From Laetmonice hystrix (taxonomy: Eukaryota), in the NCBI GenBank assembly GCA_965235115.1, contig OZ249436.1, positions 27,034,001-27,098,000 on the forward strand: 64,000 bases of DNA. Reading direction: 5' to 3'. Position 1 is the stretch's first letter, and each line of letters opens with the position of its first letter. The notes beneath the pieces are model-generated. The model searched no databases, was not told the DNA's origin, and saw nothing but the letters and a program-made list of their open reading frames with translations. Below are positions 1 through 27,473 of the stretch, piece by piece. Made by a program: the position numbers and the translations under genes.

Positions 1-629
1 ATGATATGGCTGACTGGCCCTTAGACATTACCCGGACCACTCAGCCAACACCCTCCCTCTTGCCAATCCCCATGATATGGCTGACTGGCCCTTAGACATT
101 ATCCCAAAGCACCCAGCCAACACCCTCCCCCTTCCCAATCCCCATGATATGGCTGACTGGTCCTTAGACATTACCCCGAACCACAGAGCCAACACCCTCC
201 CTCGACCCAATCCCCATGATATGGCTGACTGGCCCTCAGACATTACCCCGAACCACTCACAGCCAACACCCTCCCTCTTCCCAATCCCCATGACATGGCT
301 GACTGGCCCTCAGACAATACCCCGAACCACTCAGCCAACACCCTCCCTCTTCCCAATCCCCATGATATGGCTGACTGGCCCTTAGACATTACCCCGAACC
401 ACTCAGCCAACACCCTCCCACTTCCCAATCCCCATGATATGGCTGACTGGCCCTCAGACATTACCCCGAACCACTCACAGCCAACACCCTCCCTCTTCCC
501 AATCCCCATGATATGGCTGACTGGCCCTTAGACATTACCCCGAACCACTCAGCCAACACCTTCCCCTCTTCCTAATCCCCATGATACGGCTGTCTGGCCC
601 TAAGACATTCCCTCAAACCACTCAACCAA

Positions 630-1250
630 ATTCATCATTGTTGATTTTTACTATAGTCATTCAGTTACAACAAGACAAGAATTATATGTGTGCAGGGGTG
701 GCGTCGTGACACAGTGCAGATATTTCATCTGAAGGGTCAACTCCCACAAACTTTTTTTCATTGTTTTCTTTTGTGATTTTTTGGGTATTTTTCCCCTTTT
801 CTTCTATACTACCACCTCCAACCACCCAGAGTGACGCTCCAGTACAGCGAAATCAAATTAACCTTGATATAAACACCCAGCAGACATATCTCAGTACTGC
901 GACATCCATTACCCACAAACTTTTGTTTCATTTTTTTCTCTTTTGATTTTTTGGGGCTATTTTTCGTTTTTCTTCTATACTACCACCTCCAACCAATCCT
1001 ATATCCCCCTTCCCAATCCCTGACATGACTGATTGGTCTTCAGACATTCCCTCCAAACACTTAGCCGACATCTCATCCCCTTCCCAATCCACATGCTGTG
1101 GCTGTCTGGCCCTCAGACATTACCTCTAACCACACAACCAACACCTTCCCCACACTCACTACCACAGGGTGATGAAACGAATGGGGCCTATTGTGACCCG
1201 GGCCCCAAGGGGAATGACAATGATCATAAATGATGATCAGATGACTCGAT
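630..1250. repeat. Island A copy 1: AT-rich insert A1 (~630-996), two diverged monomers, and ~100-bp insert A2 (~1151-1250)
   Basis: Non-satellite sequence starting ATTCATCATTGTTGATTTTTAC and ending GATGACTCGAT; recurs near-identically 8 times. Confidence 0.92.
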
Positions 1251-4200
1251 TTCCCAACCCCTATAATATGGCTAACTGGCCGTGTGACGTTAACCCTAAC
1301 CACTCAGCCAACACTCCCCCCTCTTTCCAATCCCAATGATATGGTTGACTGGCCCTCAGATGTTACCCCTAACCACTCAGCCAACACCCTTCATGTTCCC
1401 AATCCCCATGATATGGCTGACTGGCCCTCACTCATTACCCCGAACCACTCAGCCAACACCCTCCCTCTACCCAATCCCCATGATATGGCTGACTGGCCCT
1501 TAGACATTACCCCGAACCACTCAACCAACACCCTCCCTCTTCCCAATCCCCATGATATGGCTGACTGGCCCTCAGACATTACCCCGAACCACTCAGCCAA
1601 CAGCCTCCCCCTTCCCAATCCCCATGATATGGCTGACTGGCCCTTAAGACATTACCCCGAACCACCCAGCCAACACCCTCCCTCTTCCCAATCCCCATGA
1701 TATGGCTGACTGGCCCTCAGACATTACCCCGAACCACTCAGCCAACACGCTCCTTCTTCCCAATCCCCATGATATGGCTGAATGTCCCTCACACATTACC
1801 CCGAACCACTCAGCCAACCCCCTCCCTCTTCCCAATCCCCACGATATGGCTGACTGGCCCTTAGACATTACCCGGACCACTCAGCCAACACCCTCCCTCT
1901 TGCCAATCCCCATGATATGGCTGACTGGCCCTTAACATTACCCCGAACCACTCAGCCAACACCTTCCCCCCTTTTTCCAATCCCAATGATATGGTTGACA
2001 GGCCCTGAGATGTTACCCCTAACCACTCAGCCAACATCCTCCCTCTTCCCAATCCCCATGATATGGCTGACTGGCCCTCAGACATTACCCCGAACCACTC
2101 AGCCAACACCCTCCCCTTCCCAATCCCATGATATGGCTGACTGGCCCTTAGACATTATCCCAAACCACCCAGCCAACACCCTCCCTCTTCCCAATCCCCA
2201 TGATATGGCTGACTGGCCCTCACTCATTACCCCGAACCACTCAGCCAACACTCTCCCCCTTCCCAATCCCATGATATGGCTGACTGGCCCTCAGACATTA
2301 CCCCGAACGACTGAGCCAACACGCTCCCTCTTCCCAATCCCCATGATATGGCTGAATGTCCCTCACACATTACCCCGAACCACTCAGCCAACCCCCTCCC
2401 TCTTCCCAATCCCCACGATATGGCTGACTGGCCCTTAGACATTACCCGGACCACTCAGCCAACACCCTCCCTCTTGCCAATCCCCATGATATGGTTGACT
2501 GGCCCTCAGATGTTACCCCTAACCACTCAGCCAACACCCTTCATGTTCCCAATCCCCATGATATGGCTGACTGACCCTCACTCATTACCCCGAACCACTC
2601 AGCCAACCCCCTCCCTCTTCCCAATCCCCACGATATGGCTGACTGGCCCTTAGGCATTACCCGGACCACTCAGCCAACACCCTCCCTCTTGCCAATCCCC
2701 ATGATATGGCTGACTGGCCCTCAGACATTACCCCGAACGAATGAGCCAACACGCTCCCTCTTCCCAATCCCCATGATATGGCTGAATGTCCCTCACACAT
2801 TACCCCGAACCACTCAGCCAACCCCCTCCCTCTTCCCAATCCCCACGATATGGCTGACTGGCCCTTAGGCATTACCCCGAACCACTCAGCCAACACCCTC
2901 CCTCTTCCCAATCCCCATGATATGGCTGACTGGCCCTTAGACATTACCCCGAACCACTCAGCCAACACCTTCCCCCCTCTTTCCAATCCCAATGATATGG
3001 TTGACTGGCCCTCAGATGTTACCCCTAACCACTCAGCCAACACCCTTCATGTTCCCAATCCCCATGATATGGCTGACTGGCCCTCACTCATTACCCCGAA
3101 CCACTCAGCCAACACCCTCCCTCTACCCAATCCCCATGATATGGCTGACTGGCCCTTAGCCATTACCCCGAACCACTCAGCCAACACCCCCCCTCTTCCC
3201 AATCCCCATGATATGGCTGACTGGCCCTCAGACATTACCCCGAACCACTCAGCCAACACCCTCCCTCTTCCCAATCCCCATGATATGGCTGACTGGCCCT
3301 CAGACATTACCCCGAACCACCCAGCCAACACCCTCCCTCTTTCCAATCCCCATGATATGGCTGACTGACCCTCAGACATTACCCCGAACCACTCAGCCAA
3401 CACCCTCCCCTTCCCAATCCCATGATATGGCTGACTGGCCCTTAGACATTATCCCAAACCACCCAGCCAACACCCTCCCTCTTCCCAATCCCCATGATAT
3501 GGCTGACTGTCCCTCAGACATTACCCCGAACCACTCAGCCAACACCCTCCCACTTCCCAATCCCCATGATATGGCTGACTGACCCTCAGACATTACCCCG
3601 AACCACTCAGCCAACACCCTCCCCTTCCCAATCCCATGATATGGCTGACTGGCCCTTAGACATTATCCCAAACCACCCAGCCAACACCCTCCCTCTTCCC
3701 AATCCCCATGATATGGCTGACTGTCCCTCAGACATTACCCCGAACCACTCAGCCAACACCCTTCCACTTCCCAATCCCCATGATATGGCTGACTGGCCCT
3801 TAGACATTACCCGGACCACTCAGCCAACACCCTCCATCTTGCCAATCCCCATGATATGGCTGACTGGCCCTTAGACATTATCCCAAAGCACCCAGCCAAC
3901 ACCCTCCCCCCTTCCCAATCCCCATGATATGGCTGACTGGTCCTCAGACATTACCCCGAACCACAGAGCCAACACCCTCCCTCGACCCAATCCCCATGAT
4001 ATGGCTGACTGGCCCTCAGACATTACCCCGAACCACTCACAGCCAACACCCTCCCTCTTCCCAATCCCCATGACATGGCTGACTGGCCCTCAGACATTAC
4101 CCCGAACCACTCAGCCAACACCCTCCCTCTTCCCAATCCCCATGATATGGCTGACTGGCCCTTAGACATTACCCCGAACCACTCAGCCAACACCTTCCCC

Positions 4201-7200
4201 CCTCTTTCCAATCCCAATGATATGGTTGACTGGCCCTCAGATGTTACCCCTAACCACTCAGCCAACACCCTTCATGTTCCCAATCCCCATGATATGGCTG
4301 ACTGGCCCTCACTCATTACCCCGAACCACTCAGCCAACACCCTCCCTCTACCCAATCCCCATGATATGGCTGACTGGCCCTTAGCCATTACCCCGAACCA
4401 CTCAGCCAACACCCCCCCTCTTCCCAATCCCCATGATATGGCTGACTGGCCCTCAGACATTACCCCGAACCACTCAGCCAACACCCTCCCTCTTCCCAAT
4501 CCCCATGATATGGCTGACTGGCCCTCAGACATTACCCCGAACCACCCAGCCAACACCCTCCCTCTTTCCAATCCCCATGATATGGCTGACTGACCCTCAG
4601 ACATTACCCCGAACCACTCAGCCAACACCCTCCCCTTCCCAATCCCATGATATGGCTGACTGGCCCTTAGACATTATCCCAAACCACCCAGCCAACACCC
4701 CCCCTCTTCCCAATCCCCATGATATGGCTGACTGGCCCTCAGACATTACCCCGAACCACTCAGCCAACACCCTCCCTCTTCCCAATCCCCATGATATGGC
4801 TGACTGTCCCTCAGACATTACCCCGAACCACTCAGCCAACACCCTCCCACTTCCCAATCCCCATGATATGGCTGACTGACCCTCAGACATTACCCCGAAC
4901 CACTCAGCCAACACCCTCCCCTTCCCAATCCCATGATATGGCTGACTGGCCCTTAGACATTATCCCAAACCACCCAGCCAACACCCTCCCTCTTCCCAAT
5001 CCCCATGATATGGCTGACTGTCCCTCAGACATTACCCCGAACCACTCAGCCAACACCCTTCCACTTCCCAATCCCCATGATATGGCTGACTGGCCCTTAG
5101 ACATTACCCGGACCACTCAGCCAACACCCTCCATCTTGCCAATCCCCATGATATGGCTGACTGGCCCTTAGACATTATCCCAAAGCACCCAGCCAACACC
5201 CTCCCCCCTTCCCAATCCCCATGATATGGCTGACTGGTCCTCAGACATTACCCCGAACCACAGAGCCAACACCCTCCCTCGACCCAATCCCCATGATATG
5301 GCTGACTGGCCCTCAGACATTACCCCGAACCACTCACAGCCAACACCCTCCCTCTTCCCAATCCCCATGACATGGCTGACTGGCCCTCAGACATTACCCC
5401 GAACCACTCAGCCAACACCCTCCCTCTTCCCAATCCCCATGATATGGCTGACTGGCCCTTAGACATTACCCCGAACCACTCAGCCAACACCCTCCCACTT
5501 TCCAATCCCCATGATATGGCTGACTGGCCCTTAGACATTACCCCGAAACACTCAGCCAACACCTTCATCCCTTCACAGTCTCCATGATATGGCCGACTGG
5601 CCCTTAGACATTACCCCGAACCACTCAGCCAACACCCTCCCTCTTGCCAATCCCCACGATATGGCTGACTGGCCCTTAGACATTACCCCGAACCACTCAG
5701 CCAACACCCTCCCACTTCCCAATCCCCATGATATGGCTGACTGGCCCTTAGACATTACCCCGAAACACTCAGCCAACACCTTCATCCCTTCACAGTCTCC
5801 ATGATATGGCCGACTGGCCCTTAGACATTACCCCGAACCACTTAGCCAACACCCTCCCTCTTGCCAATCCCCATGATATGGCTGACTGGCCCTTAGACAT
5901 TACCCCGAACCACTCAGCCAACACCTTCATCCCTTCACAATCTCCATGATATGGCCGACTGGCCCTTAGACATTACCCCGAACCACTCAGCCAACACCCT
6001 CCCTCTTCCCAATCCCCATGATATGGCTGACTGGCCCTCAGACATTACCCCGAACGACTGAGCCAACACGCTCCCTCTTCCCAATCCCCATGATATGGCT
6101 GAATGTCCCTCACACATTACCCGGACCACTCAGCCAACACCCTCCCTCTTGCCAATCCCCATGATATGGCTGACTGGCCCTCAGACATTACCCCGAACGA
6201 CTGAGCCAACACGCTCCCTCTTCCCAATCCCCATGATATGGCTGAATGTCCCTCACACATTACCCCGAACCACTCAGCCAACCCCCTCCCTCTTCCCAAT
6301 CCCCACGATATGGCTGACTGGCCCTTAGGCATTACCCGGACCACTCAGCCAACACGCTCCCTCTTCCCAATCCCCATGATATGGCTGAATGTCCCTCACA
6401 CATTACCCCGAACCACTCAGCCAACCCCCTCCCTCTTCCCAATCCCCACGATATGGCTGACTGGCCCTTAGGCATTACCCGGACCACTCAGCCAACACCC
6501 TCCCTCTTGCCAATCCCCATGATATGGCTGACTGGCCCTTAGACATTACCCCGAACCACTCAGCCAACACCTTCCCCCCTCTTTCCAATCCCAATGATAT
6601 GGTTGACTGGCCCGCAGATGTTACCCCTAACCACTCAGCCAACACCCTTCATGTTCCCAATCCCCATGATATGGCTGACTGGCCCTCACTCACTACCCCG
6701 AACCACTCAGCCAACACCCTCCCTCTACCCAATCCCCATGATATGGCTGACTGGCCCTTAGACATTACCCCGAACCACTCAGCCAACACCCTCCCTCTTC
6801 CCAATCCCCATGATATGGCTGACTGGCCCTTAGACATTACCCCGAACCACTCAGCCAACACCCTCCCTCTTCCCAATCCCCAAGATATGGCTGACTGGCC
6901 CTCAGACATTACTCCGAACCACCCACCCAACACCCTCCCTCTTTCCAATCCCCATGATATGGCTGACTGACCCCCAGACATTACCCCGAACCACTCAGCC
7001 AACACCCTCCCCCTTCCCAATCCCCATGATATGGCTGACTGGCCCTTAGACATTATCCCAAACCACCCAGCCAACACCCTCCCTCTTCCCAATCCCCATG
7101 ATATGGCTGACTGTCCCTCAGACATTACCCCGAACCACTCAGCCAACACCCTCCCTCTTCCCAATCCCCATGATATGGCTGACTGGACCACAGACATTAC

Positions 7201-7206
7201 CCCGAA

Positions 7207-7668
7207 TAGCCGGGTCCCCAGCTCTATATTAACTTCGTATATAGAGCCTGGCGTAGGCCAATCGAAGCGAGCATTGTGATTGGCCCATCGAAAACATGGA
7301 CGCAAACGAGGTATAGTTCCGTACCCTCCGTATTTCTCCAACAAGACACAAATATTTTCATCAATCCCTTTAAAATACAAGTGTTAAATGTCCTCGCTTT
7401 TCTGGATGTAAACATAGCGTCAGCAGTCCCACCACCTGCTACGGTCTGCATACGCAGGGGCATGTTGCTATTGTTGGCCACTCCCGGCCACGCTCCAAGC
7501 AGAAGTCAATCACTCTGTTAACGCTGACCAACGGACCGGAGGCGGAAGTGATTAGCTCCGAGGCGGAAGTGCTTGGAGATCACCACTTCCGTTTTACAGC
7601 TTTCTGTTAGCCATCACCGGGCCTAACATCAAGCGGATGCGTATGGTAAGGCGGCGGGGACCAGGCTA
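7207..7668. mobile_element. Island B copy 1: 462-bp non-autonomous TIR DNA transposon (MITE-like; possibly AcademH- or Mutator-type)
   Basis: Left end TAGCCGGGTCCCC; right end GGGGACCAGGCTA (reverse complement TAGCCTGGTCCCC, 12/13 match). Flanked by the direct repeat TACCCCGAA at 7198-7206 and 7669-7677. No transposase ORF. Confidence 0.9.
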
Positions 7669-7834
7669 TACCCCGAACAACTCAACCAACACCCTCCCTC
7701 TTCCCAATCCCCATGATATGGCTGACTGGCCCTTAGACATTACCCCGAACCACTCAGCCAACACCTTCCCCTCTTCCTAATCCCCATGATACGGCTGTCT
7801 GGCCCTAAGACATTCCCTCAAACCACTCAACCAA

Positions 7835-8455
7835 ATTCATCATTGTTGATTTTTACTATAGTCATTCAGTTACAACAAGACAAGAATTATATGTGTGCAG
7901 GGGTGGCGTCGTGACACAGTGCAGATATTTCATCTGAAGGGTCAACTCCCACAAACTTTTTTTCACTGTTTTCTTTTGTGATTTTTTGGGTATTTTTCCC
8001 CTTTTCTTCTATACTACCACCTCCAACCACCCAGAGTGACGCTCCAGTACAGCGAAATCAAATTAACCTTGATATAAACACCCAGCAGACATATCTCAGT
8101 ACTGCGACATCCATTACCCACAAACTTTTGTTTCATTTTTTTCTCTTTTGATTTTTTGGGGCTATTTTTCGTTTTTCTTCTATACTACCACCTCCAACCA
8201 ATCCTATATCCCCCTTCCCAATCCCTGACATGACTGATTGGTCTTCAGACATTCCCTCCAAACACTTAGCCGACATCTCATCCCCTTCCCAATCCACATG
8301 CTGTGGCTGTCTGGCCCTCAGACATTACCTCTAACCACACAACCAACACCTTCCCCACACTCACTCCCACAGGGTGATGAAACGAATGGGGCCTATTGTG
8401 ACCCGGGCCCCAAGGGGAATGACAATGATCATAAATGATGATAAGATGACTCGAT
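7835..8455. repeat. Island A copy 2 (follows island B copy 1)
   Basis: Near-identical to 630-1250, offset 7205. Confidence 0.92.
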
Positions 8456-11040
8456 TTCCCAACCCCTATAATATGGCTAACTGGCCGTGTGACGTTAACC
8501 CTAACCACTCAGCCAACACCTTCCCCCCTCTTTCCAATCCCAATGATATGGTTGACTGGCCCTCAGATGTTACCCCTAACCACTCAGCCAACACCCTTCA
8601 TGTTCCCAATCCCCATGATATGGCTGACTGGCCCTCACTCATTACCCCGAACCACTCAGCCAACACCCTCCCTCTACCCAATCCCCATGATATGGCTGAC
8701 TGGCCCTTAGACATTACCCCGAACCACTCAACCAACACCCTCCCTCTTCCCAATCCCCATGATATGGCTGACTGGCCCTCAGACATTACCCCGAACCACT
8801 CAGCCAACACCCTCCCTCTTCCCAATCCCCATGATATGGCTGACTGGCCCTCAGACATTACCCCGCACCACCCAGCCAACACCCTCCCTCTTTCCAATCC
8901 CCAGGATATGGCTGACTGACCCTCAGACATTACCCCGAACCACTCAGCCAACACCCTCCCCCTTCCCAATCCCCATGATATGGCTGACTGGCCCTTAGAC
9001 ATTATCCCAAAGCACCCAGCCAACACCATCCCCCTTCCCAATCCCCATGATATGGCTGACTGGTCCTCAGACATTACCCCGAACCACAGAGCCAACACCC
9101 TCCCTCGACCTAATCCCCATGATATGGCTGACTGGCCCTTAGACATTACCCCGAACCACTCAGCCAACACCCTCCCTCTTGCCAATCCCCATGATATGGC
9201 TGACTGGCCCTTAGACATTACCCCGAACCACTCAGCCAACACCTTCCCTCTTCCCAATCCCCATGATATGGCTGACTGGCCCTCAGACATTACCCCGAAC
9301 CACTCAGCCAACAGCCTCCCCCTTCCCAATCCCCATGATATGGCTGACTGGCCCTTAGACATTACCCCGAACCACCCAGCCAACACCCTCCCTCTTCCCA
9401 ATCCCCATGATATGGCTGACTGGCCCTCAGACATTACCCCGAACCACTCAGCCAACACGCTCCTTCTTCCCAATCCCCATGATATGGCTGAATGTCCCTC
9501 ACACATTACCCCGAACCACTCAGCCAACCCCCTCCCTCTTCCCAATCCCCACGATATGGCTGACTGGCCCTTAGACATTACCCGGACCACTCAGCCAACA
9601 CCCTCCCTTTTGCCAATCCCCATGATATGGCTGACTGGCCCTTAGACATTACCCCGAACCACTCAGCCAACACCTTCCCCCCTTTTTCCAATCCCAATGA
9701 TATGGTTGACAGGCCCTGAGATGTTACCCCTAACCACTCAGCCAACATCCTCCCTCTTCCCAATCCCCATGATATGGCTGACTGGCCCTCAGACATTACC
9801 CCGAACCACTCAGCCAACACCCTCCCCTTCCCAATTCCATGATATGGCTGACTGGCCCTTAGACATTATCCCAAACCACCCAGCCAACACCCTCCCTCTT
9901 CCCAATCCCCATGATATGGCTGACTGGCCCTCACTCATTACCCCGAACCACTCAGCCAACACTCTCCCCCTTCCCAATCCCATGATATGGCTGACTGGCC
10001 CTCAGACATTACCCCGAACGACTGAGCCAACACGCTCCCTCTTCCCAATCCCCATGATATGGCTGAATGTCCCTCACACATTACCCCGAACCACTCAGCC
10101 AACCCCCTCCCTCTTCCAAATCCCCACGATATGGCTGACTGGCCCTTAGACATTACCCGGACCACTCAGCCAACACCCTCCCTCTTGCCAATCCCCATGA
10201 TATGGTTGACTGGCCCTCAGATGTTACCCCTAACCACTCAGCCAACACCCTTCATGTTCCCAATCCCCATGATATGGCTGACTGACCCTCACTCATTACC
10301 CCGAACCACTCAGCCAACCCCCTCCCTCTTCCCAATCCCCACGATATGGCTGAGTGGCCCTTAGGCATTACCCGGACCACTCAGCCAACACCCTCCCTCT
10401 TGCCAATCCCCATGATATGGCTGACTGGCCCTCAGACATTACCCCGAACGACTGAGCCAACACGCTCCCTCTTCCCAATCCCCATGATACGGCTGAATGT
10501 CCCTCACACATTACCCCGAACCACTCAGCCAACCCCCTCCCTCTTCCCAATCCCCACGATATGGCTGACTGGCCCTTAGGCATTACCCCGAACCACTCAG
10601 CCAACACCCTCCCTCTTCCCAATCCCCATGATATGGCTGACTGGCCCTTGGACATTACCCCGAACCACTCAGCCAACACCTTCCCCCCTCTTTCCAATCC
10701 CAATGATATGGTTGACTGGCCCTCAGATGTTACCCCTAACCACTCAGCCAACACCCTTCATGTTCCCAATCCCCATGATATGGCTGACTGGCCCTCACTC
10801 ATTACCCCGAACCACTCAGCCAACACCCTCCCTCTACCCAATCCCCATGATATGGCTGACTGGCCCTTAGCCATTACCCCGAACCACTCAGCCAACACCC
10901 TCCCTCTTCCCTATCCCCATGATATGGCTGACTGACCCTCAGACATTACCCCGAACCACTCAGCCAACACCTTCCCCTCTTCCTAATCCCCATGATACGG
11001 CTGTCTGGCCCTAAGACATTCCCTCAAACCACTCAACCAA

Positions 11041-11661
11041 ATTCATCATTGTTGATTTTTACTATAGTCATTCAGTTACAACAAGACAAGAATTATATGT
11101 GTGCAGGGGTGGCGTCGTGACACAGTGCAGATATTTCATCTGAAGGGTCAACTCCCACAAACTTTTTTTCATTTTTTTCTTTTGTGATTTTTTGGGTATT
11201 TTTCCCCTTTTCTTCTATACTACCACCTCCAACCACCCAGAGTGACGCTCCAGTACAGCGAAATCAAATTAACCTTGATATAAACACCCAGCAGACATAT
11301 CTCAGTACTGCGACATCCATTACGCACAAACTTTTGTTTCATTTTTTTTTCTTTTGATTTTTTGGGGCTATTTTTCGTTTTTCTTCTATACTACCACCTC
11401 CAACCAATCCTATATCCCCCTTCCAAATCCCTGACATGACTGATTGGTCTTCAGACATTCCCTCCAAACACTTAGCCGACATCTCATCCCCTTCCCAATC
11501 CACATGCTGTGGCTGTCTGGCCCTCAGACATTACCTCTAACCACACAACCAACACCTTCCCCACACTCACTACCACAGGGTGATGAAACGAATGGGGCCT
11601 ATTGTGACCCGGGCCCCAAGGGGAATGACAATGATCATAAATGATGATCAGATGACTCGAT
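11041..11661. repeat. Island A copy 3
   Basis: Near-identical to 630-1250, offset 10411. Confidence 0.92.
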
Positions 11662-13367
11662 TTCCCAACCCCTATAATATGGCTAACTGGCCGTGTGACG
11701 TTAACCCTAACCACTCAGCCAACACCTTCCCCCCTCTTTCCAATCCCAATGATATGGTTGACTGGCCCTCAGATGTTACCCCTAACCACTCAGCCAACAC
11801 CCTTCATGTTCCCAATCCCCATGATATGGCTGACTGGCCCTCACTCATTACCCCGAACCACTCAGCCAACACCCTCCCTCTACCCAATCCCCATGATATG
11901 GCTGACTGGCCCTTAGACATTACCCCGAACCACTCAACCAACACCCTCCCTCTTCCCAATCCCCATGATATGGCTGACTGGCCCTCAGACATTACCCCGA
12001 ACCACTCAGCCAACAGCCTCCCCCTTCCCAATCCCCATGATATGGCTGACTGGCCCTTAAGACATTACCCCGAACCACCCAGCCAACACCCTCCCTCTTC
12101 CCAATCCCCATGATATGGCTGACTGGCCCTCAGACATTACCCCGAACCACTCAGCCAACACGCTCCTTCTTCCCAATCCCCATGATATGGCTGAATGTCC
12201 CTCACACATTACCCCGAACCACTCAGCCAACCCCCTCCCTCTTCCCAATCCCCACGATATGGCTGACTGGCCCTTAGACATTACCCGGACCACTCAGCCA
12301 ACACCCTCCCTCTTGCCAATCCCCATGATATGGCTGACTGGCCCTTAACATTACCCCGAACCACTCAGCCAACACCTTCCCCCCTTTTTCCAATCCCAAT
12401 GATATGGTTGACAGGCCCTGAGATGTTACCCCTAACCACTCAGCCAACATCCTCCCTCTTCCCAATCCCCATGATATGGCTGACTGGCCCTCAGACATTA
12501 CCCCGAACCACTCAGCCAACACCCTCCCCTTCCCAATCCCATGATATGGCTGACTGGCCCTTAGACATTATCCCAAACCACCCAGCCAACACCCTCCCTC
12601 TTCCCAATCCCCATGATATGGCTGACTGGCCCTCACTCATTACCCCGAACCACTCAGCCAACACTCTCCCCCTTCCCAATCCCATGATATGGCTGACTGG
12701 CCCTCAGACATTACCCCGAACGACTGAGCCAACACGCTCCCTCTTCCCAATCCCCATGATATGGCTGAATGTCCCTCACACATTACCCCGAACCACTCAG
12801 CCAACCCCCTCCCTCTTCCCAATCCCCACGATATGGCTGACTGGCCCTTAGACATTACCCGGACCACTCAGCCAACACCCTCCCTCTTGCCAATCCCCAT
12901 GATATGGCTGACTGGCCCTTAGACATTACCCCGAACCACTCAGCCAACACCCTCCCTCTTCCCAATCCCCATGATATGGCTGACTGGCCCTTAGACATTA
13001 CCCCGAACCACTCAGCCAACACCCTCCCTCTTCCCAATCCCCAAGATATGGCTGACTGGCCCTCAGACATTACTCCGAACCACCCACCCAACACCCTCCC
13101 TCTTTCCAATCCCCATGATATGGCTGACTGACCCCCAGACATTACCCCGAACCACTCAGCCAACACCCTCCCCCTTCCCAATCCCCATGATATGGCTGAC
13201 TGGCCCTTAGACATTATCCCAAACCACCCAGCCAACACCCTCCCTCTTCCCAATCCCCATGATATGGCTGACTGTCCCTCAGACATTACCCCGAACCACT
13301 CAGCCAACACCCTCCCTCTTCCCAATCCCCATGATATGGCTGACTGGACCACAGACATTACCCCGAA

Positions 13368-13829
13368 TAGCCGGGTCCCCAGCTCTATATTAACTTCGTA
13401 TATAGAGCCTGGCGTAGGCCAATCGAAGCGAGCATTGTGATTGGCCCATCGAAAACATGGACGCAAACGAGGTATAGTTCCGTACCCTCCGTATTTCTCC
13501 AACAAGACACAAATATTTTCATCAATCCCTTTAAAATACAAGTGTTAAATGTCCTCGCTTTTCTGGATGTAAACATAGCGTCAGCAGTCCCACCACCTGC
13601 TACGGTCTGCATACGCAGGGGCATGTTGCTATTGTTGGCCACTCCCGGCCACGCTCCAAGCAGAAGTCAATCACTCTGTTAACGCTGACCAACGGACCGG
13701 AGGCGGAAGTGATTAGCTCCGAGGCGGAAGTGCTTGGAGATCACCACTTCCGTTTTACAGCTTTCTGTTAGCCATCACCGGGCCTAACATCAAGCGGATG
13801 CGTATGGTAAGGCGGCGGGGACCAGGCTA
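13368..13829. mobile_element. Island B copy 2
   Basis: Same 462-bp sequence, TIRs and TACCCCGAA TSD as copy 1. Confidence 0.9.
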
Positions 13830-15939
13830 TACCCCGAACAACTCAACCAACACCCTCCCTCTTCCCAATCCCCATGATATGGCTGACTGGCCCTTAGACA
13901 TTACCCCGAACCACTCAGCCAACACCCTCCCCCTTCCCAATCCCCATGATATGGCTGACTGGCCCTTAGACATTATCCCAAAGCACCCAGCCAACACCAT
14001 CCCCCTTCCCAATCCCCATGATATGGCTGACTGGTCCTCAGACATTACCCCGAACCACAGAGCCAACACCCTCCCTCGACCTAATCCCCATGATATGGCT
14101 GACTGGCCCTTAGACATTACCCCGAACCACTCAGCCAACACCTTCCCTCTTCCCAATCCCCATGATATGGCTGACTGGCCCTCAGACATTACCCCGAACC
14201 ACTCAGCCAACAGCCTCCCCCTTCCCAATCCCCATGATATGGCTGACTGGCCCTTAGACATTACCCCGAACCACCCAGCCAACACCCTCCCTCTTCCCAA
14301 TCCCCATGATATGGCTGACTGGCCCTCAGACATTACCCCGAACCACTCAGCCAACACGCTCCTTCTTCCCAATCCCCATGATATGGCTGAATGTCCCTCA
14401 CACATTACCCCGAACCACTCAGCCAACCCCCTCCCTCTTCCCAATCCCCACGATATGGCTGACTGGCCCTTAGACATTACCCGGACCACTCAGCCAACAC
14501 CCTCCCTCTTGCCAATCCCCATGATATGGCTGACTGGCCCTTAGACATTACCCCGAACCACTCAGCCAACACCTTCCCCCCTTTTTCCAATCCCAATGAT
14601 ATGGTTGACAGGCCCTGAGATGTTACCCCTAACCACTCAGCCAACATCCTCCCTCTTCCCAATCCCCATGATATGGCTGACTGGCCCTCAGACATTACCC
14701 CGAACCACTCAGCCAACACCCTCCCCTTCCCAATTCCATGATATGGCTGACTGGCCCTTAGACATTATCCCAAACCACCCAGCCAACACCCTCCCTCTTC
14801 CCAATCCCCATGATATGGCTGACTGGCCCTCACTCATTACCCCGAACCACTCAGCCAACACTCTCCCCCTTCCCAATCCCATGATATGGCTGACTGGCCC
14901 TCAGACATTACCCCGAACGACTGAGCCAACACGCTCCCTCTTCCCAATCCCCATGATATGGCTGAATGTCCCTCACACATTACCCCGAACCACTCAGCCA
15001 ACCCCCTCCCTCTTCCAAATCCCCACGATATGGCTGACTGGCCCTTAGACATTACCCGGACCACTCAGCCAACACCCTCCCTCTTGCCAATCCCCATGAT
15101 ATGGTTGACTGGCCCTCAGATGTTACCCCTAACCACTCAGCCAACACCCTTCATGTTCCCAATCCCCATGATATGGCTGACTGACCCTCACTCATTACCC
15201 CGAACCACTCAGCCAACCCCCTCCCTCTTCCCAATCCCCACGATATGGCTGAGTGGCCCTTAGGCATTACCCGGACCACTCAGCCAACACCCTCCCTCTT
15301 GCCAATCCCCATGATATGGCTGACTGGCCCTCAGACATTACCCCGAACGACTGAGCCAACACGCTCCCTCTTCCCAATCCCCATGATACGGCTGAATGTC
15401 CCTCACACATTACCCCGAACCACTCAGCCAACCCCCTCCCTCTTCCCAATCCCCACGATATGGCTGACTGGCCCTTAGGCATTACCCCGAACCACTCAGC
15501 CAACACCCTCCCTCTTCCCAATCCCCATGATATGGCTGACTGGCCCTTGGACATTACCCCGAACCACTCAGCCAACACCTTCCCCCCTCTTTCCAATCCC
15601 AATGATATGGTTGACTGGCCCTCAGATGTTACCCCTAACCACTCAGCCAACACCCTTCATGTTCCCAATCCCCATGATATGGCTGACTGGCCCTCACTCA
15701 TTACCCCGAACCACTCAGCCAACACCCTCCCTCTACCCAATCCCCATGATATGGCTGACTGGCCCTTAGCCATTACCCCGAACCACTCAGCCAACACCCT
15801 CCCTCTTCCCTATCCCCATGATATGGCTGACTGACCCTCAGACATTACCCCGAACCACTCAGCCAACACCTTCCCCTCTTCCTAATCCCCATGATACGGC
15901 TGTCTGGCCCTAAGACATTCCCTCAAACCACTCAACCAA

Positions 15940-16560
15940 ATTCATCATTGTTGATTTTTACTATAGTCATTCAGTTACAACAAGACAAGAATTATATGTG
16001 TGCAGGGGTGGCGTCGTGACACAGTGCAGATATTTCATCTGAAGGGTCAACTCCCACAAACTTTTTTTCATTGTTTTCTTTTGTGATTTTTTGGGTATTT
16101 TTCCCCTTTTCTTCTATACTACCACCTCCAACCACCCAGAGTGACGCTCCAGTACAGCGAAATCAAATTAACCTTGATATAAACACCCAGCAGACATATC
16201 TCAGTACTGCGACATCCATTACGCACAAACTTTTGTTTCATTTTTTTCTCTTTTGATTTTTTGGGGCTATTTTTCGTTTTTCTTCTATACTACCACCTCC
16301 AACCAATCCTATATCCCCCTTCCAAATCCCTGACATGACTGATTGGTCTTCAGACATTCCCTCCAAACACTTAGCCGACATCTCATCCCCTTCCCAATCC
16401 ACATGCTGTGGCTGTCTGGCCCTCAGACATTACCTCTAACCACACAACCAACACCTTCCCCACACTCACTACCACAGGGTGATGAAACGAATGGGGCCTA
16501 TTGTGACCCGGGCCCCAAGGGGAATGACAATGATCATAAATGATGATCAGATGACTCGAT
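15940..16560. repeat. Island A copy 4
   Basis: Near-identical to 630-1250, offset 15310. Confidence 0.92.
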
Positions 16561-18337
16561 TTCCCAACCCCTATAATATGGCTAACTGGCCGTGTGACGT
16601 TAACCCTAACCACTCAGCCAACACCTTCCCCCCTCTTTCCAATCCCAATGATATGGTTGACTGGCCCTCAGATGTTACCCCTAACCACTCAGCCAACACC
16701 CTTCATGTTCCCAATCCCCATGATATGGCTGACTGGCCCTCACTCATTACCCCGAACCACTCAGCCAACACCCTCCCTCTACCCAATCCCCATGATATGG
16801 CTGACTGGCCCTTAGACATTACCCCGAACCACTCAACCAACACCCTCCCTCTTCCCAATCCCCATGATATGGCTGACTGGCCCTCAGACATTACCCCGAA
16901 CCACTCAGCCAACAGCCTCCCCCTTCCCAATCCCCATGATATGGCTGACTGGCCCTTAAGACATTACCCCGAACCACCCAGCCAACACCCTCCCTCTTCC
17001 CAATCCCCATGATATGGCTGACTGGCCCTCAGACATTACCCCGAACCACTCAGCCAACACGCTCCTTCTTCCCAATCCCCATGATATGGCTGAATGTCCC
17101 TCACACATTACCCCGAACCACTCAGCCAACCCCCTCCCTCTTCCCAATCCCCACGATATGGCTGACTGGCCCTTAGACATTACCCGGACCACTCAGCCAA
17201 CACCCTCCCTCTTGCCAATCCCCATGATATGGCTGACTGGCCCTTAACATTACCCCGAACCACTCAGCCAACACCTTCCCCCCTTTTTCCAATCCCAATG
17301 ATATGGTTGACAGGCCCTGAGATGTTACCCCTAACCACTCAGCCAACATCCTCCCTCTTCCCAATCCCCATGATATGGCTGACTGGCCCTCAGACATTAC
17401 CCCGAACCACTCAGCCAACACCCTCCCCTTCCCAATCCCATGATATGGCTGACTGGCCCTTAGACATTATCCCAAACCACCCAGCCAACACCCTCCCTCT
17501 TCCCAATCCCCATGATATGGCTGACTGGCCCTCACTCATTACCCCGAACCACTCAGCCAACACTCTCCCCCTTCCCAATCCCATGATATGGCTGACTGGC
17601 CCTCAGACATTACCCCGAACGACTGAGCCAACACGCTCCCTCTTCCCAATCCCATGATATGGCTGACTGGCCCTCAGACATTACCCCGAACGACTGAGCC
17701 AACACGCTCCCTCTTCCCAATCCCCATGATATGGCTGAATGTCCCTCACACATTACCCCGAACCACTCAGCCAACCCCCTCCCTCTTCCCAATCCCCACG
17801 ATATGGCTGACTGGCCCTTAGACATTACCCGGACCACTCAGCCAACACCCTCCCTCTTGCCAATCCCCATGATATGGCTGACTGGCCCTTAGACATTACC
17901 CCGAACCACTCAGCCAACACCCTCCCTCTTCCCAATCCCCATGATATGGCTGACTGGCCCTTAGACATTACCCCGAACCACTCAGCCAACACCCTCCCTC
18001 TTCCCAATCCCCAAGATATGGCTGACTGGCCCTCAGACATTACTCCGAACCACCCACCCAACACCCTCCCTCTTTCCAATCCCCATGATATGGCTGACTG
18101 ACCCCCAGACATTACCCCGAACCACTCAGCCAACACCCTCCCCCTTCCCAATCCCCATGATATGGCTGACTGGCCCTTAGACATTATCCCAAACCACCCA
18201 GCCAACACCCTCCCTCTTCCCAATCCCCATGATATGGCTGACTGTCCCTCAGACATTACCCCGAACCACTCAGCCAACACCCTCCCTCTTCCCAATCCCC
18301 ATGATATGGCTGACTGGACCACAGACATTACCCCGAA

Positions 18338-18799
18338 TAGCCGGGTCCCCAGCTCTATATTAACTTCGTATATAGAGCCTGGCGTAGGCCAATCGAAGCG
18401 AGCATTGTGATTGGCCCATCGAAAACATGGACGCAAACGAGGTATAGTTCCGTACCCTCCGTATTTCTCCAACAAGACACAAATATTTTCATCAATCCCT
18501 TTAAAATACAAGTGTTAAATGTCCTCGCTTTTCTGGATGTAAACATAGCGTCAGCAGTCCCACCACCTGCTACGGTCTGCATACGCAGGGGCATGTTGCT
18601 ATTGTTGGCCACTCCCGGCCACGCTCCAAGCAGAAGTCAATCACTCTGTTAACGCTGACCAACGGACCGGAGGCGGAAGTGATTAGCTCCGAGGCGGAAG
18701 TGCTTGGAGATCACCACTTCCGTTTTACAGCTTTCTGTTAGCCATCACCGGGCCTAACATCAAGCGGATGCGTATGGTAAGGCGGCGGGGACCAGGCTA
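18338..18799. mobile_element. Island B copy 3
   Basis: Same 462-bp sequence, TIRs and TSD as copy 1. Confidence 0.9.
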
Positions 18800-18965
18800 T
18801 ACCCCGAACAACTCAACCAACACCCTCCCTCTTCCCAATCCCCATGATATGGCTGACTGGCCCTTAGACATTACCCCGAACCACTCAGCCAACACCTTCC
18901 CCTCTTCCTAATCCCCATGATACGGCTGTCTGGCCCTAAGACATTCCCTCAAACCACTCAACCAA

Positions 18966-19586
18966 ATTCATCATTGTTGATTTTTACTATAGTCATTCAG
19001 TTACAACAAGACAAGAATTATATGTGTGCAGGGGTGGCGTCGTGACACAGTGCAGATATTTCATCTGAAGGGTCAACTCCCACAAACTTTTTTTCACTGT
19101 TTTCTTTTGTGATTTTTTGGGTATTTTTCCCCTTTTCTTCTATACTACCACCTCCAACCACCCAGAGTGACGCTCCAGTACAGCGAAATCAAATTAACCT
19201 TGATATAAACACCCAGCAGACATATCTCAGTACTGCGACATCCATTACCCACAAACTTTTGTTTCATTTTTTTCTCTTTTGATTTTTTGGGGCTATTTTT
19301 CGTTTTTCTTCTATACTACCACCTCCAACCAATCCTATATCCCCCTTCCCAATCCCTGACATGACTGATTGGTCTTCAGACATTCCCTCCAAACACTTAG
19401 CCGACATCTCATCCCCTTCCCAATCCACATGCTGTGGCTGTCTGGCCCTCAGACATTACCTCTAACCACACAACCAACACCTTCCCCACACTCACTCCCA
19501 CAGGGTGATGAAACGAATGGGGCCTATTGTGACCCGGGCCCCAAGGGGAATGACAATGATCATAAATGATGATAAGATGACTCGAT
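18966..19586. repeat. Island A copy 5 (follows island B copy 3)
   Basis: Near-identical to 630-1250, offset 18336. Confidence 0.92.
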
Positions 19587-22500
19587 TTCCCAACCCCTAT
19601 AATATGGCTAACTGGCCGTGTGACGTTAACCCTAACCACTCAGCCAACACCTTCCCCCCTCTTTCCAATCCCAATGATATGGTTGACTGGCCCTCAGATG
19701 TTACCCCTAACCACTCAGCCAACACCCTTCATGTTCCCAATCCCCATGATATGGCTGACTGGCCCTCACTCATTACCCCGAACCACTCAGCCAACACCCT
19801 CCCTCTACCCAATCCCCATGATATGGCTGACTGGCCCTTAGACATTACCCCGAACCACTCAACCAACACCCTCCCTCTTCCCAATCCCCATGATATGGCT
19901 GACTGGCCCTCAGACATTACCCCGAACCACTCAGCCAACACCCTCCCTCTTCCCAATCCCCATGATATGGCTGACTGGCCCTCAGACATTACCCCGCACC
20001 ACCCAGCCAACACCCTCCCTCTTTCCAATCCCCAGGATATGGCTGACTGACCCTCAGACATTACCCCGAACCACTCAGCCAACACCCTCCCCCTTCCCAA
20101 TCCCCATGATATGGCTGACTGGCCCTTAGACATTATCCCAAAGCACCCAGCCAACACCATCCCCCTTCCCAATCCCCATGATATGGCTGACTGGTCCTCA
20201 GACATTACCCCGAACCACAGAGCCAACACCCTCCCTCGACCTAATCCCCATGATATGGCTGACTGGCCCTCAGACATTACCCCGAACCACTCACAGCCAA
20301 CACCCTCCCTCTTCCCAATCCCCATGACATGGCTGACTGGCCCTCAGACATTACCCCGAACCACTCACCCAACACCCTCCCTCTTCCCAATCCCCATGAT
20401 ATGGCTGACTCGCCCTTAGACATTACCCCGAACCACTCAGCCAACACCTTCATCCCTTCACAGTCTCCATGATATGGCCGACTGGCCCTTAGACATTACC
20501 CCGAACCACTCAGCCAACACCCTCCCTCTTGCCAATCCCCATGATATGGCTGACTGGCCCTTAGACATTACCCCGAACCACTCAGCCAACACCCTCCCAC
20601 TTCCCAATCCCCATGATATGGCTGACTGGCCCTTAGACATTACCCCGAAACACTCAGCCAACACCTTCATCTCTTCACAATCTCCATGATATGGCCGACT
20701 GGCCCTTAGACATTACCCCGAACCACTCAGCCAACACCCTCCCTCTTGCCAATCCCCATGATATGGCTGACCGGCCCTTAGACATTACCCCGAACCACTC
20801 AGCCAACACCCTCCCTCTTGCCAATCCCCATGATATGGCTGACTGGCCCTTAGACATTACCCCGAACCACTCAGCCAACACCTTCCCTCTTCCCAATCCC
20901 CATGATATGGCTGACTGGCCCTCAGACATTACCCCGAACCACTCAGCCAACAGCCTCCCCCTTCCCAATCCCCATGATATGGCTGACTGGCCCTTAGACA
21001 TTACCCCGAACCACCCAGCCAACACTCCCCCCTCTTTCCAATCCCAATGATATGGTTGACTGGCCCTCAGATGTTACCCCTAACCACTCAGCCAACACCC
21101 TTCATGTTCCCAATCCCCATGATATGGCTGACTGGCCTTCACTCATTACCCCGAACCACTCAGCCAACACCCTCCCTCTACCCAATCCCCATGATATGGC
21201 TGACTGGCCCTTAGACATTACCCCGAACCACTCAACCAACACCCTCCCTCTTCCCAATCCCCATGATATGGCTGACTGGCCCTCAGACATTACCCCGAAC
21301 CACTCAGCCAACAGCCTCCCCCTTCCCAATCCCCATGATATGGCTGACTGGCCCTTAAGACATTACCCCGAACCACCCAGCCAACACCCTCCCTCTTCCC
21401 AATCCCCATGATATGGCTGACTGGCCCTCAGACATTACCCCGAACCACTCAGCCAACACGCTCCTTCTTCCCAATCCCCATGATATGGCTGAATGTCCCT
21501 CACACATTACCCCGAACCACTCAGCCAACCCCCTCCCTCTTCCCAATCCCCACGATATGGCTGACTGGCCCTTAGACATTACCCGGACCACTCAGCCAAC
21601 ACCCTCCCTCTTGCCAATCCCCATGATATGGCTGACTGGCCCTTAACATTACCCCGAACCACTCAGCCAACACCTTCCCCCCTTTTTCCAATCCCAATGA
21701 TATGGTTGACAGGCCCTGAGATGTTACCCCTAACCACTCAGCCAACATCCTCCCTCTTCCCAATCCCCATGATATGGCTGACTGGCCCTCAGACATTACC
21801 CCGAACCACTCAGCCAACACCCTCCCCTTCCCAATCCCATGATATGGCTGACTGGCCCTTAGACATTATCCCAAACCACCCAGCCAACACCCTCCCTCTT
21901 CCCAATCCCCATGATATGGCTGACTGGCCCTCACTCATTACCCCGAACCACTCAGCCAACACTCTCCCCCTTCCCAATCCCATGATATGGCTGACTGGCC
22001 CTCAGACATTACCCCGAACGACTGAGCCAACACGCTCCCTCTTCCCAATCCCCATGATATGGCTGAATGTCCCTCACACATTACCCCGAACCACTCAGCC
22101 AACCCCCTCCCTCTTCCCAATCCCCACGATATGGCTGACTGGCCCTTAGACATTACCCGGACCACTCAGCCAACACCCTCCCTCTTGCCAATCCCCATGA
22201 TATGGTTGACTGGCCCTCAGATGTTACCCCTAACCACTCAGCCAACACCCTTCATGTTCCCAATCCCCATGATATGGCTGACTGACCCTCACTCATTACC
22301 CCGAACCACTCAGCCAACCCCCTCCCTCTTCCCAATCCCCACGATATGGCTGACTGGCCCTTAGGCATTACCCGGACCACTCAGCCAACACCCTCCCTCT
22401 TGCCAATCCCCATGATATGGCTGACTGGCCCTCAGACATTACCCCGAACGAATGAGCCAACACGCTCCCTCTTCCCAATCCCCATGATATGGCTGAATGT

Positions 22501-25500
22501 CCCTCACACATTACCCCGAACCACTCAGCCAACCCCCTCCCTCTTCCCAATCCCCACGATATGGCTGACTGGCCCTTAGGCATTACCCCAAACCACTCAA
22601 CCAACACCCTCCCTCTTCCCAATCCCCATGATATGGCTGACTGGCCCTTAGACATTACCCCGAACCACTCAGCCAACACCTTCCCCCCTCTTTCCAATCC
22701 CAATGATATGGTTGACTGGCCCTCAGATGTTACCCCTAACCACTCAGCCAACACCCTTCATGTTCCCAATCCCCATGATATGGCTGACTGGCCCTCACTC
22801 ATTACCCCGAACCACTCAGCCAACACCCTCCCTCTACCCAATCCCCATGATATGGCTGACTGGCCCTTAGCCATTACCCCGAACCACTCAGCCAACACCC
22901 CCCCTCTTCCCAATCCCCATGATATGGCTGACTGGCCCTCAGACATTACCCCGAACCACTCAGCCAACACCCTCCCTCTTCACAATCCCCATGATATGGC
23001 TGACTGGCCCTCAGACATTACCCCGAACCACCCAGCCAACACCCTCCCTCTTTCCAATCCCCATGATATGGCTGACTGACCCTCAGACATTACCCCGAAC
23101 CACTCAGCCAACACCCTCCCCTTCCCAATCCCATGATATGGCTGACTGGCCCTTAGACATTATCCCAAACCACCCAGCCAACACCCTCCCTCTTCCCAAT
23201 CCCCATGATATGGCTGACTGTCCCTCAGACATTACCCCGAACCACTCAGCCAACACCCTCCCACTTCCCAATCCCCATGATATGGCTGACTGACCCTCAG
23301 ACATTACCCCGAACCACTCAGCCAACACCCTCCCCTTCCCAATCCCATGATATGGCTGACTGGCCCTTAGACATTATCCCAAACCACCCAGCCAACACCC
23401 TCCCTCTTCCCAATCCCCATGATATGGCTGACTGTCCCTCAGACATTACCCCGAACCACTCAGCCAACACCCTTCCACTTCCCAATCCCCATGATATGGC
23501 TGACTGGCCCTTAGACATTACCCGGACCACTCAGCCAACACCCTCCATCTTGCCAATCCCCATGATATGGCTGACTGGCCCTTAGACATTATCCCAAAGC
23601 ACCCAGCCAACACCCTCCCCCCTTCCCAATCCCCATGATATGGCTGACTGGTCCTCAGACATTACCCCGAACCACAGAGCCAACACCCTCCCTCGACCCA
23701 ATCCCCATGATATGGCTGACTGGCCCTCAGACATTACCCCGAACCACTCACAGCCAACACCCTCCCTCTTCCCAATCCCCATGACATGGCTGACTGGCCC
23801 TCAGACATTACCCCGAACCACTCAGCCAACACCCTCCCTCTTCCCAATCCCCATGATATGGCTGACTGGCCCTTAGACATTACCCCGAACCACTCAGCCA
23901 ACACCTTCCCCCCTCTTTCCAATCCCAATGATATGGTTGACTGGCCCTCAGATGTTACCCCTAACCACTCAGCCAACACCCTTCATGTTCCCAATCCCCA
24001 TGATATGGCTGACTGGCCCTCACTCATTACCCCGAACCACTCAGCCAACACCCTCCCTCTACCCAATCCCCATGATATGGCTGACTGGCCCTTAGCCATT
24101 ACCCCGAACCACTCAGCCAACACCCCCCCTCTTCCCAATCCCCATGATATGGCTGACTGGCCCTCAGACATTACCCCGAACCACTCAGCCAACACCCTCC
24201 CTCTTCCCAATCCCCATGATATGGCTGACTGGCCCTCAGACATTACCCCGAACCACCCAGCCAACACCCTCCCTCTTTCCAATCCCCATGATATGGCTGA
24301 CTGACCCTCAGACATTACCCCGAACCACTCAGCCAACACCCTCCCCTTCCCAATCCCATGATATGGCTGACTGGCCCTTAGACATTATCCCAAACCACCC
24401 AGCCAACACCCTCCCTCTTCCCAATCCCCATGATATGGCTGACTGTCCCTCAGACATTACCCCGAACCACTCAGCCAACACCCTCCCACTTCCCAATCCC
24501 CATGATATGGCTGACTGACCCTCAGACATTACCCCGAACCACTCAGCCAACACCCTCCCCTTCCCAATCCCATGATATGGCTGACTGGCCCTTAGACATT
24601 ATCCCAAACCACCCAGCCAACACCCTCCCTCTTCCCAATCCCCATGATATGGCTGACTGTCCCTCAGACATTACCCCGAACCACTCAGCCAACACCCTTC
24701 CACTTCCCAATCCCCATGATATGGCTGACTGGCCCTTAGACATTACCCGGACCACTCAGCCAACACCCTCCATCTTGCCAATCCCCATGATATGGCTGAC
24801 TGGCCCTTAGACATTATCCCAAAGCACCCAGCCAACACCCTCCCCCCTTCCCAATCCCCATGATATGGCTGACTGGTCCTCAGACATTACCCCGAACCAC
24901 AGAGCCAACACCCTCCCTCGACCCAATCCCCATGATATGGCTGACTGGCCCTCAGACATTACCCCGAACCACTCACAGCCAACACCCTCCCTCTTCCCAA
25001 TCCCCATGACATGGCTGACTGGCCCTCAGACATTACCCCGAACCACTCAGCCAACACCCTCCCTCTTCCCAATCCCCATGATATGGCTGACTGGCCCTTA
25101 GACATTACCCCGAACCACTCAGCCAACACCCTCCCACTTTCCAATCCCCATGATATGGCTGACTGGCCCTTAGACATTACCCCGAAACACTCAGCCAACA
25201 CCTTCATCCCTTCACAGTCTCCATGATATGGCCGACTGGCCCTTAGACATTACCCCGAACCACTCAGCCAACACCCTCCCTCTTGCCAATCCCCACGATA
25301 TGGCTGACTGGCCCTTAGACATTACCCCGAACCACTCAGCCAACACCATCCCACTTCCCAATCCCCATGATATGGCTGACTGGCCCTTAGACATTACCCC
25401 GAAACACTCAGCCAACACCTTCATCCCTTCACAGTCTCCATGATATGGCCGACTGGCCCTTAGACATTACCCCGAACCACTTAGCCAACACCCTCCCTCT

Positions 25501-26845
25501 TGCCAATCCCCATGATATGGCTGACTGGCCCTTAGACATTACCCCGAACCACTCAGCCAACACCTTCATCCCTTCACAATCTCCATGATATGGCCGACTG
25601 GCCCTTAGACATTACCCCGAACCACTCAGCCAACACCCTCCCTCTTCCCAATCCCCATGATATGGCTGACTGGCCCTCAGACATTACCCCGAACGACTGA
25701 GCCAACACGCTCCCTCTTCCCAATCCCCATGATATGGCTGAATGTCCCTCACACATTACCCGGACCACTCAGCCAACACCCTCCCTCTTGCCAATCCCCA
25801 TGATATGGCTGACTGGCCCTCAGACATTACCCCGAACGACTGAGCCAACACGCTCCCTCTTCCCAATCCCCATGATATGGCTGAATGTCCCTCACACATT
25901 ACCCCGAACCACTCAGCCAACCCCCTCCCTCTTCCCAATCCCCACGATATGGCTGACTGGCCCTTAGGCATTACCCGGACCACTCAGCCAACACGCTCCC
26001 TCTTCCCAATCCCCATGATATGGCTGAATGTCCCTCACACATTACCCCGAACCACTCAGCCAACCCCCTCCCTCGTCCCAATCCCCACGATATGGCTGAC
26101 TGGCCCTTAGGCATTACCCGGACCACTCAGCCAACACCCTCCCTCTTGCCAATCCCCATGATATGGCTGACTGGCCCTTAGACATTACCCCGAACCACTC
26201 AGCCAACACCTTCCCCCCTCTTTCCAATCCCAATGATATGGTTGACTGGCCCGCAGATGTTACCCCTAACCACTCAGCCAACACCCTTCATGTTCCCAAT
26301 CCCCATGATATGGCTGACTGGCCCTCACTCACTACCCCGAACCACTCAGCCAACACCCGCCCTCTACCCAATCCCCATGATATGGCTGACTGGCCCTTAG
26401 ACATTACCCCGAACCACTCAGCCAACACCCTCCCTCTTCCCAATCCCCATGATATGGCTGACTGGCCCTTAGACATTACCCCGAACCACTCAGCCAACAC
26501 CCTCCCTCTTCCCAATCCCCAAGATATGGCTGACTGGCCCTCAGACATTACTCCGAACCACCCACCCAACACCCTCCCTCTTTCCAATCCCCATGATATG
26601 GCTGACTGACCCCCAGACATTACCCCGAACCACTCAGCCAACACCCTCCCCCTTCCCAACCCCCATGATATGGCTGACTGGCCCTTAGACATTATCCCAA
26701 ACCACCCAGCCAACACCCTCCCTCTTCCCAATCCCCATGATATGGCTGACTGTCCCTCAGACATTACCCCGAACCACTCAGCCAACACCCTCCCTCTTCC
26801 CAATCCCCATGATATGGCTGACTGGACCACAGACATTACCCCGAA

Positions 26846-27307
26846 TAGCCGGGTCCCCAGCTCTATATTAACTTCGTATATAGAGCCTGGCGTAGGCCAA
26901 TCGAAGCGAGCATTGTGATTGGCCCATCGAAAACATGGACGCAAACGAGGTATAGTTCCGTACCCTCCGTATTTCTCCAACAAGACACAAATATTTTCAT
27001 CAATCCCTTTAAAATACAAGTGTTAAATGTCCTCGCTTTTCTGGATGTAAACATAGCGTCAGCAGTCCCACCACCTGCTACGGTCTGCATACGCAGGGGC
27101 ATGTTGCTATTGTTGGCCACTCCCGGCCACGCTCCAAGCAGAAGTCAATCACTCTGTTAACGCTGACCAACGGACCGGAGGCGGAAGTGATTAGCTCTGA
27201 GGCGGAAGTGCTTGGAGATCACCACTTCCGTTTTACAGCTTTCTGTTAGCCATCACCGGGCCTAACATCAAGCGGATGCGTATGGTAAGGCGGCGGGGAC
27301 CAGGCTA
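26846..27307. mobile_element. Island B copy 4
   Basis: Same element, with one visible CpG>TpG change at 27198 (AGCTCTGAGG vs AGCTCCGAGG). Confidence 0.9.
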
Positions 27308-27473
27308 TACCCCGAACAACTCAACCAACACCCTCCCTCTTCCCAATCCCCATGATATGGCTGACTGGCCCTTAGACATTACCCCGAACCACTCAGCCAA
27401 CACCTTCCCCTCTTCCTAATCCCCATGATACGGCTGTCTGGCCCTAAGACATTCCCTCAAACCACTCAACCAA

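Follow-up and report, generated by a model that had tools for sequence, protein, structure and literature searches.

The window analyzed here, a stretch of 64,000 nucleotides, is an array of a 72-bp satellite in which four copies of a 462-bp insert are embedded. The locus raises the question of whether these copies are the products of separate transpositions into one satellite sequence or of a single insertion that the array itself has multiplied, and of which group of transposons the insert represents. We analyzed its ends and coding content, aligned contigs from public sequencing runs, compared the four sites with related satellite blocks of the window, and matched the termini against a curated transposon library. 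The insert is almost certainly a transposon with terminal inverted repeats (TIRs) that was amplified passively.

The element and its host array

The host array extends over the whole window (1..64000, + strand) and consists of the satellite in one orientation, arranged as a mosaic of higher-order duplications. The 72-bp consensus has 836 matches on the + strand and none on the − strand and fills nearly the whole window, and the 556 monomers of exactly this length share a mean identity of 95.7% with it. The unit equals 24 codons, and several frames are open for up to 244 aa. Since monomers of 70, 71, 73 and 74 bp are common and Pfam finds no family in the one satellite frame tested, the satellite is probably non-coding.

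Copy 1 of the element occupies 7207..7668 (+ strand; 462 bp, 51% G+C). It is bounded by 13-bp TIRs at 7207..7219 (+) and 7656..7668 (−), which agree at 12 of 13 bases, a match equalled in none of 200,000 shuffles, and its ends read TAGCC(G/T)G. On either side stands the satellite 9-mer TACCCCGAA, forming a target site duplication with its left copy at 7198..7206 and its right copy at 7669..7677 (both +). The preliminary description had placed a 462-bp element with 13-bp TIRs inside 7198..7677, and both the repeats and the coordinates proved exact (9 + 462 + 9 bp). The window contains 8 matches to the TIR pattern, where chance would give 0.10, and none of 100 shuffles yielded 8 or more. These matches pair into four element copies, starting at 7207, 13368, 18338 and 26846 and all on the + strand; no partial copies were found in the 64,000-nt window.

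The element had also been described as devoid of coding capacity. This holds in that no Pfam family and no homologue was found, but it carries one ATG frame of 79 aa, the longest, on the − strand. Pfam was queried with three frames of the element and one of the satellite. None of the three element frames reached the curated cut-off of any family, and the sole match, to DUF2828 (E 0.085; score 12.1 bits, cut-off 29), was rejected as sub-threshold. A 93-aa frame had no homologue among 153 candidate longer proteins, a comparison of little weight, and Rfam gave no match at E up to 1 in positions 7100–8600. The stretch 7207–7668 is a non-autonomous, MITE-like TIR DNA transposon.

Dispersed relatives and the length of the duplication

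The element was found in five public runs, four of them from one sample and one (X1) a marine metagenome of another study. Contigs of four of the five runs (X1, X2, X3 and X5, X4 being left out) were aligned to the window at 80% likeness; X2, X3 and X5 come from one sample, possibly the one from which the window was derived. Contigs matching the element number 1568 in X2, 1602 in X3, 64 in X5 and 3 in X1, the last covering 9 of 29 bins. Those of X2 fall into identity bands of 99% and above (468 contigs), 95–99% (304), 90–95% (505) and under 90% (291). Their summed depth is 58,000–647,000 over the element bins against 429–441 in the outermost flank bins, with 46–92 for single listed contigs; a summed depth is no copy number, but the family probably comprises hundreds of copies or more.

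Just before 7207, 27 X2 contigs part from the window with flanks that are unlike (agreement 0.36), and three X5 contigs do the same. At the right end, one X1 contig, from the other study, parts behind 7668, and two X5 rows do so at 7669 and 7671 rather than at 7668; no X2 or X3 row parts there among the matches listed (20 rows). No contig spanning the whole element was found among the matches listed, so that flanks are known on one side per contig. The dispersed copies whose search the preliminary description had advised are therefore present in public-run contigs, as relatives with other flanks, and the element belongs to a large, diverse family dispersed in the host genome and bordered by many other flanks. 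At 7360, 7431 and 7432 the letters of the window copy differ from 97–99% of the X2 depth, and thus the window copy is a slightly diverged member of this family.

The window alone permits three symmetric splits between duplication and element, with duplications of 9, 7 or 5 bp. It is the public-run contigs that fix the 9-bp reading, since they break at 7207 and 7668 and continue with other letters. With duplications of 7 or 5 bp, every copy would have an A directly in front of 7207 and a T directly behind 7668, and the contigs contradict this. In addition, among the matches listed, a contig of X3 links 7668 with 7207 over exactly 9 letters that are unlike the 9-mer of the window. By analogy, this head-to-tail joint, which was seen in one of the four runs at a depth of 20.9, near the single-copy level, would have the pattern of a double insertion at one site, with the 9-bp spacer as the target duplication. 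In head-to-tail dimers of P elements, the spacer represents the duplicated target of a double insertion, and TE dimers can seed TE-derived arrays (PMC5932611; this source and those cited below by accession are represented by excerpts). The 9-bp value is drawn from one insertion event and one junction contig, listed without side lengths.

Two other joints, 7230–7626 in X2 and X3 and 7227–7626 in X2 (depth 230), have short sides of 21–22 letters. They provide a lead to derivatives of about 65 bp that would have arisen by deletion and would retain only about 21–24 bases from the left end and 43 from the right.

Filled and empty sites in the array

Copies 2 (13368..13829), 3 (18338..18799) and 4 (26846..27307) lie on the + strand; the first two are identical to copy 1, and copy 4 differs from it by a single C>T, at position 353 of the element. 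All four copies have the 9-mer and the 30-bp flanks in common, in full agreement with the preliminary description, which had reported one duplication, one orientation and one set of flanking variants. Around the element, copies 1 and 4 share a block of 4379 bp with 5 mismatches, copies 3 and 4 a block of 3166 bp with 3 mismatches, copies 1 and 3 a block of 2411 bp without mismatches, and copies 2 and 3 a block of 1255 bp, also without mismatches. The right flank that copy 2 has in common with the others stops 97 bases on, a shortening that is a later rearrangement.

Two sister sites in the same array are empty. The site at 33040..33048 (+) has the same monomer context with one 9-mer and without the element, and the site at 36973..36981 (+) has the same monomer order, again with one 9-mer and without the element. 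The exact 9-bp duplication of satellite sequence claimed earlier is thereby confirmed, TACCCCGAA standing on both sides of the element and singly at the empty sites. When 471 bp (462 + 9) are subtracted from a filled site, 127 of the 129 positions compared agree with an empty site. Upstream, copy 1 and the site at 33040 remain collinear over about 500 bp, a stretch with 6 substitutions and one indel as read from the alignment; downstream, filled and empty sites are collinear over 1.36 kb, with 4 mismatches. The filled sites are much closer to one another than to the empty sites. The right-flank variant of the satellite is found at six places in the window, namely the four element copies, 33040 and 36973, and all four window matches of the left-flank variant adjoin the element copies. 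The empty sites show the consensus letter at both variant flank positions of the filled sites.

On the evidence of the duplicated blocks and of the empty sister sites at 33040 and 36973, a single insertion was multiplied by duplication of the array, as had been proposed before. Four independent insertions into the same satellite 9-mer would have had plentiful targets, the 9-mer being found 594 times in the window. However, such insertions should not share a left-flank variant that occurs nowhere else in the window (4 of 4 matches), and their flanks should not match over kilobases. The four copies are, moreover, near-identical although the family is diverse, and they agree with one another at 7360, 7431 and 7432, the positions at which nearly all of the X2 depth differs. 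Flank variants, empty sites and shared blocks together refute independent insertion, whose probability we regard as practically nil. Simple excision is an unlikely source of the empty sites, as these are without the two flank variants of all filled sites; conversion or crossover is another origin that may be considered for them. The simplest order of events is duplication of a block, insertion into one of the sisters, and further duplications.

The filled sites carry private substitutions at 7187 and 7190, 8 and 11 bases to the left of the duplication, and beyond these the filled and empty sites next differ 176 bases away. The two substitutions possibly reflect error-prone repair at the insertion, and they could also be due to chance.

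In Drosophila, insertions inside tandem arrays gain copies, which is attributed to unequal exchange (McGurk and Barbash 2018, PMC5932611). The family described here resembles these array elements both in its gain of copies within an array and in its head-to-tail joint with a spacer of duplication length. Whereas the Drosophila cases concern R1, P and hobo, here an unrelated satellite of 72 bp hosts a passenger of probable Academ type.

The element is not the only amplified block of the array. An A+T-rich non-satellite block of 374 bp (7835–8208) has further copies starting at 630, 11041, 15940, 18966, 27474, 33206 and 37139. The eight copies show 0–5 differences, have no terminal inverted repeat, and contain an internal direct repeat at a spacing of about 170 bp. 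Since this TIR-less block was amplified like the element, amplification is a property of the array. It always precedes about two diverged monomers and then a unique stretch of 100 bp, and it may represent an old array boundary trapped in later duplications. The 100-bp non-satellite stretch (8356–8455, with seven further copies) has at its start a pyrimidine-rich run ending in CAG that by eye resembles a splice acceptor, and the array possibly grew at the edge of an exon.

The right 26 kb of the window (38000–64000) are without inserts. They contain a near-tandem duplication of 6489 bp with 4 mismatches (39558–46046 and 46016–52504), as well as shared blocks that are 14–21 kb apart. This part of the window reflects very recent expansion of the array.

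Superfamily assignment and proposed history

Duplications of 9 bp are typical of Mutator-like elements (MULEs). The preliminary description had favored a non-autonomous family like AcademH, a lineage of the Academ DNA transposon superfamily that was reportedly set out by Kojima in 2020 (Mob DNA 11:15). The Repbase rule classifies non-autonomous elements by the length of the duplication and by the outermost 11 bases of the termini, of which one may mismatch (excerpt of PMC4455052). Duplications are 9–10 bp in AcademH and 3–4 bp in AcademX, a difference that is tied to helicase versus nuclease (PMC10045372), which bears out the earlier statement that AcademH gives 9-bp duplications. The 9 bp found at the insertion and the 9-letter spacer, two events, lie within the AcademH range and outside that of AcademX. 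The earlier statement that hAT elements make 8-bp duplications is correct in that 8 bp occurs but too narrow, as the hATm group makes 8 or 9 bp (PMC6004678), a range that likewise includes the 9 bp found here.

The termini were compared with the entry starts (first few hundred bases) of a curated bivalve library (additional file 31 of PMC10294476; 762 families by summed counts). Among the first 14 Academ entries listed, 13 start with TAG, which supports the earlier claim that Academ termini are of this type, and the only three entries of the file excerpt that start with TAGCC are all Academ. Academ_A.marissinica_60 resembles the left end of the element and Academ_S.constricta_12 the right end, each at 10 of the first 11 bases by eye, so that with two bivalve Academ entries positions 1–11 stay within the one mismatch allowed. 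Both entries are labelled Academ-1, the excerpt of this file giving neither an Academ-H label nor any duplication length; they differ from the element in that they are autonomous and several kb long, and the match ends at base 10 (by eye). Academ entries were absent from additional file 25 and from the first 12 files of PMC10294476, and the excerpts of PMC5751038, 10.1101/2021.09.26.461848, PMC8721813 and PMC5753468 hold nothing on Academ ends.

Judged by its terminal bases, the element very probably belongs to the Academ superfamily, and the length of its duplication makes the AcademH lineage the probable one. Like AcademH (as described in PMC10045372 and PMC10799480), it combines a 9-bp duplication with short TIRs and TAG ends, the ends having been compared with bivalve Academ entries and not with AcademH ends; unlike AcademH, it has only 462 bp and no transposase or helicase gene. 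The AcademH-like family proposed earlier thus stands as far as ends and duplication are concerned, and the lineage label stays inferred from these two features, since pattern scans of metagenomes, viral contigs and GTDB genomes found no autonomous partner and hence no partner protein. The left-end pattern had no match in JGI metagenomes and the paired-end pattern none in viral contigs. The right subterminal pattern had one match in metagenomes, none in viral contigs and one in GTDB genomes; the two matches, of only 22–26 bases and without a TIR, were rejected as chance.

If duplication length did not track the lineage, the element could be an Academ MITE with an AcademX-type partner, which has a nuclease and no helicase; we take the label Academ-1 to correspond to AcademX. 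The closest ends among the entries listed do carry this label (PMC10294476), but AcademX duplications of 3–4 bp (PMC10045372) contrast with the 462 + 9 bp added here and with the spacer of 9, and we consider such a partner unlikely. A AAGATGGC-type motif, which many bivalve Academ-1 entries carry close to their start (PMC10294476), is also absent from the window, a weak point given 2.0 matches expected by chance. The assignment uses 10–11 terminal bases and a duplication length, with no protein seen, and a TIR element of another or undescribed group could have Academ-like ends by chance; as both diagnostic features indicate one known lineage, this is hardly likely. The hATm group, a rival missing from the preliminary description, shares with the element the TAG start, the duplication length and the formation of MITE derivatives, but its conserved ends are TAGGGTG ... 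CACCCTA (PMC6004678). Among the matches listed for the 115 'TAG' places in the bivalve file, moreover, all six hAT entries starting with TAG continue with a purine (PMC10294476). The element continues with CC(G/T)G, and its origin as a non-autonomous hAT of this group is highly improbable. A MULE derivative, which the 9-bp duplication would suit, is equally hard to credit, as the TIR is merely 13 bp long and the element starts with TAG. Of the 21 MuDR entries listed out of 38, 20 start with G, one with C and none with TAG; the three Merlin entries all start with GG (PMC10294476). We therefore retain Academ, and AcademH within it, as the preferred assignment. 

DDD/E transposons can be mobilized by a transposase acting in trans, which binds the TIRs, cuts the element out and integrates it at a staggered cut whose gaps the cell then fills. 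In the present case, an autonomous element elsewhere would have supplied the transposase, which would have bound both TIRs and excised a donor copy. This copy would then have been joined to a satellite site cut with a 9-base stagger, and gap repair would have given rise to the 9-bp duplication. The partner may also encode a helicase, as suggested by the description of AcademH (PMC10045372). As read from the window, the single insertion occurred in one of several sister blocks, those at 33040 and 36973 staying empty. The element was then carried passively to its four positions by further duplications, whose offsets are about 5, 8.5, 11 and 19.6 kb. Unequal exchange is the presumed cause of these block duplications.

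The element is probably a further member of an already known transposon group, and what is new here are the empty sister sites at 33040 and 36973. The finding mainly has annotation value and reveals no new kind of system, and no role of the element in the satellite is shown. Filled and empty sister sites in one array allow the duplication and the order of events to be read directly, and the insertion can be used as a marker of satellite turnover. The locus also suggests that a probable Academ-type family is abundant in the host animal. Little work has been devoted to Academ; listings of the open-access literature showed no experiments on the transposition of AcademH, and a live partner, should one be found, would merit testing.

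It can be speculated, although we consider it rather unlikely, that the family is a high-copy, recently active AcademH-type system in which the derivatives of about 65 bp are still mobile and double insertions occur at the same site. If so, these short copies would define the minimal DNA for a helicase-assisted transposase, of which a hairpin at the left end may be part, and the role of the helicase in cutting a 9-bp target would be directly testable in an animal. This hairpin-forming palindrome is subterminal (7218..7251, +) and folds with a z of −3.64 against shuffles, in a window picked after the palindrome was seen; the first 60 bases of the element give a z of −2.01, with 7 of 200 shuffles equally good. 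No hairpin was seen at the right end, whose fold is not more stable than those of shuffles (z −0.47 and 0.07), and hairpins at both ends were accordingly rejected. The fold of the whole element (z −3.59) includes the pairing of the TIRs and is thus no separate evidence.

Within the element (7256–7285 and 7539–7591), an inverted pair of CCAAT-type boxes forms a hairpin, and three CGGAAGT-type motifs occur, two direct and one inverted. We take both kinds to resemble promoter motifs, and they are perhaps left over from the ends of the parent element.
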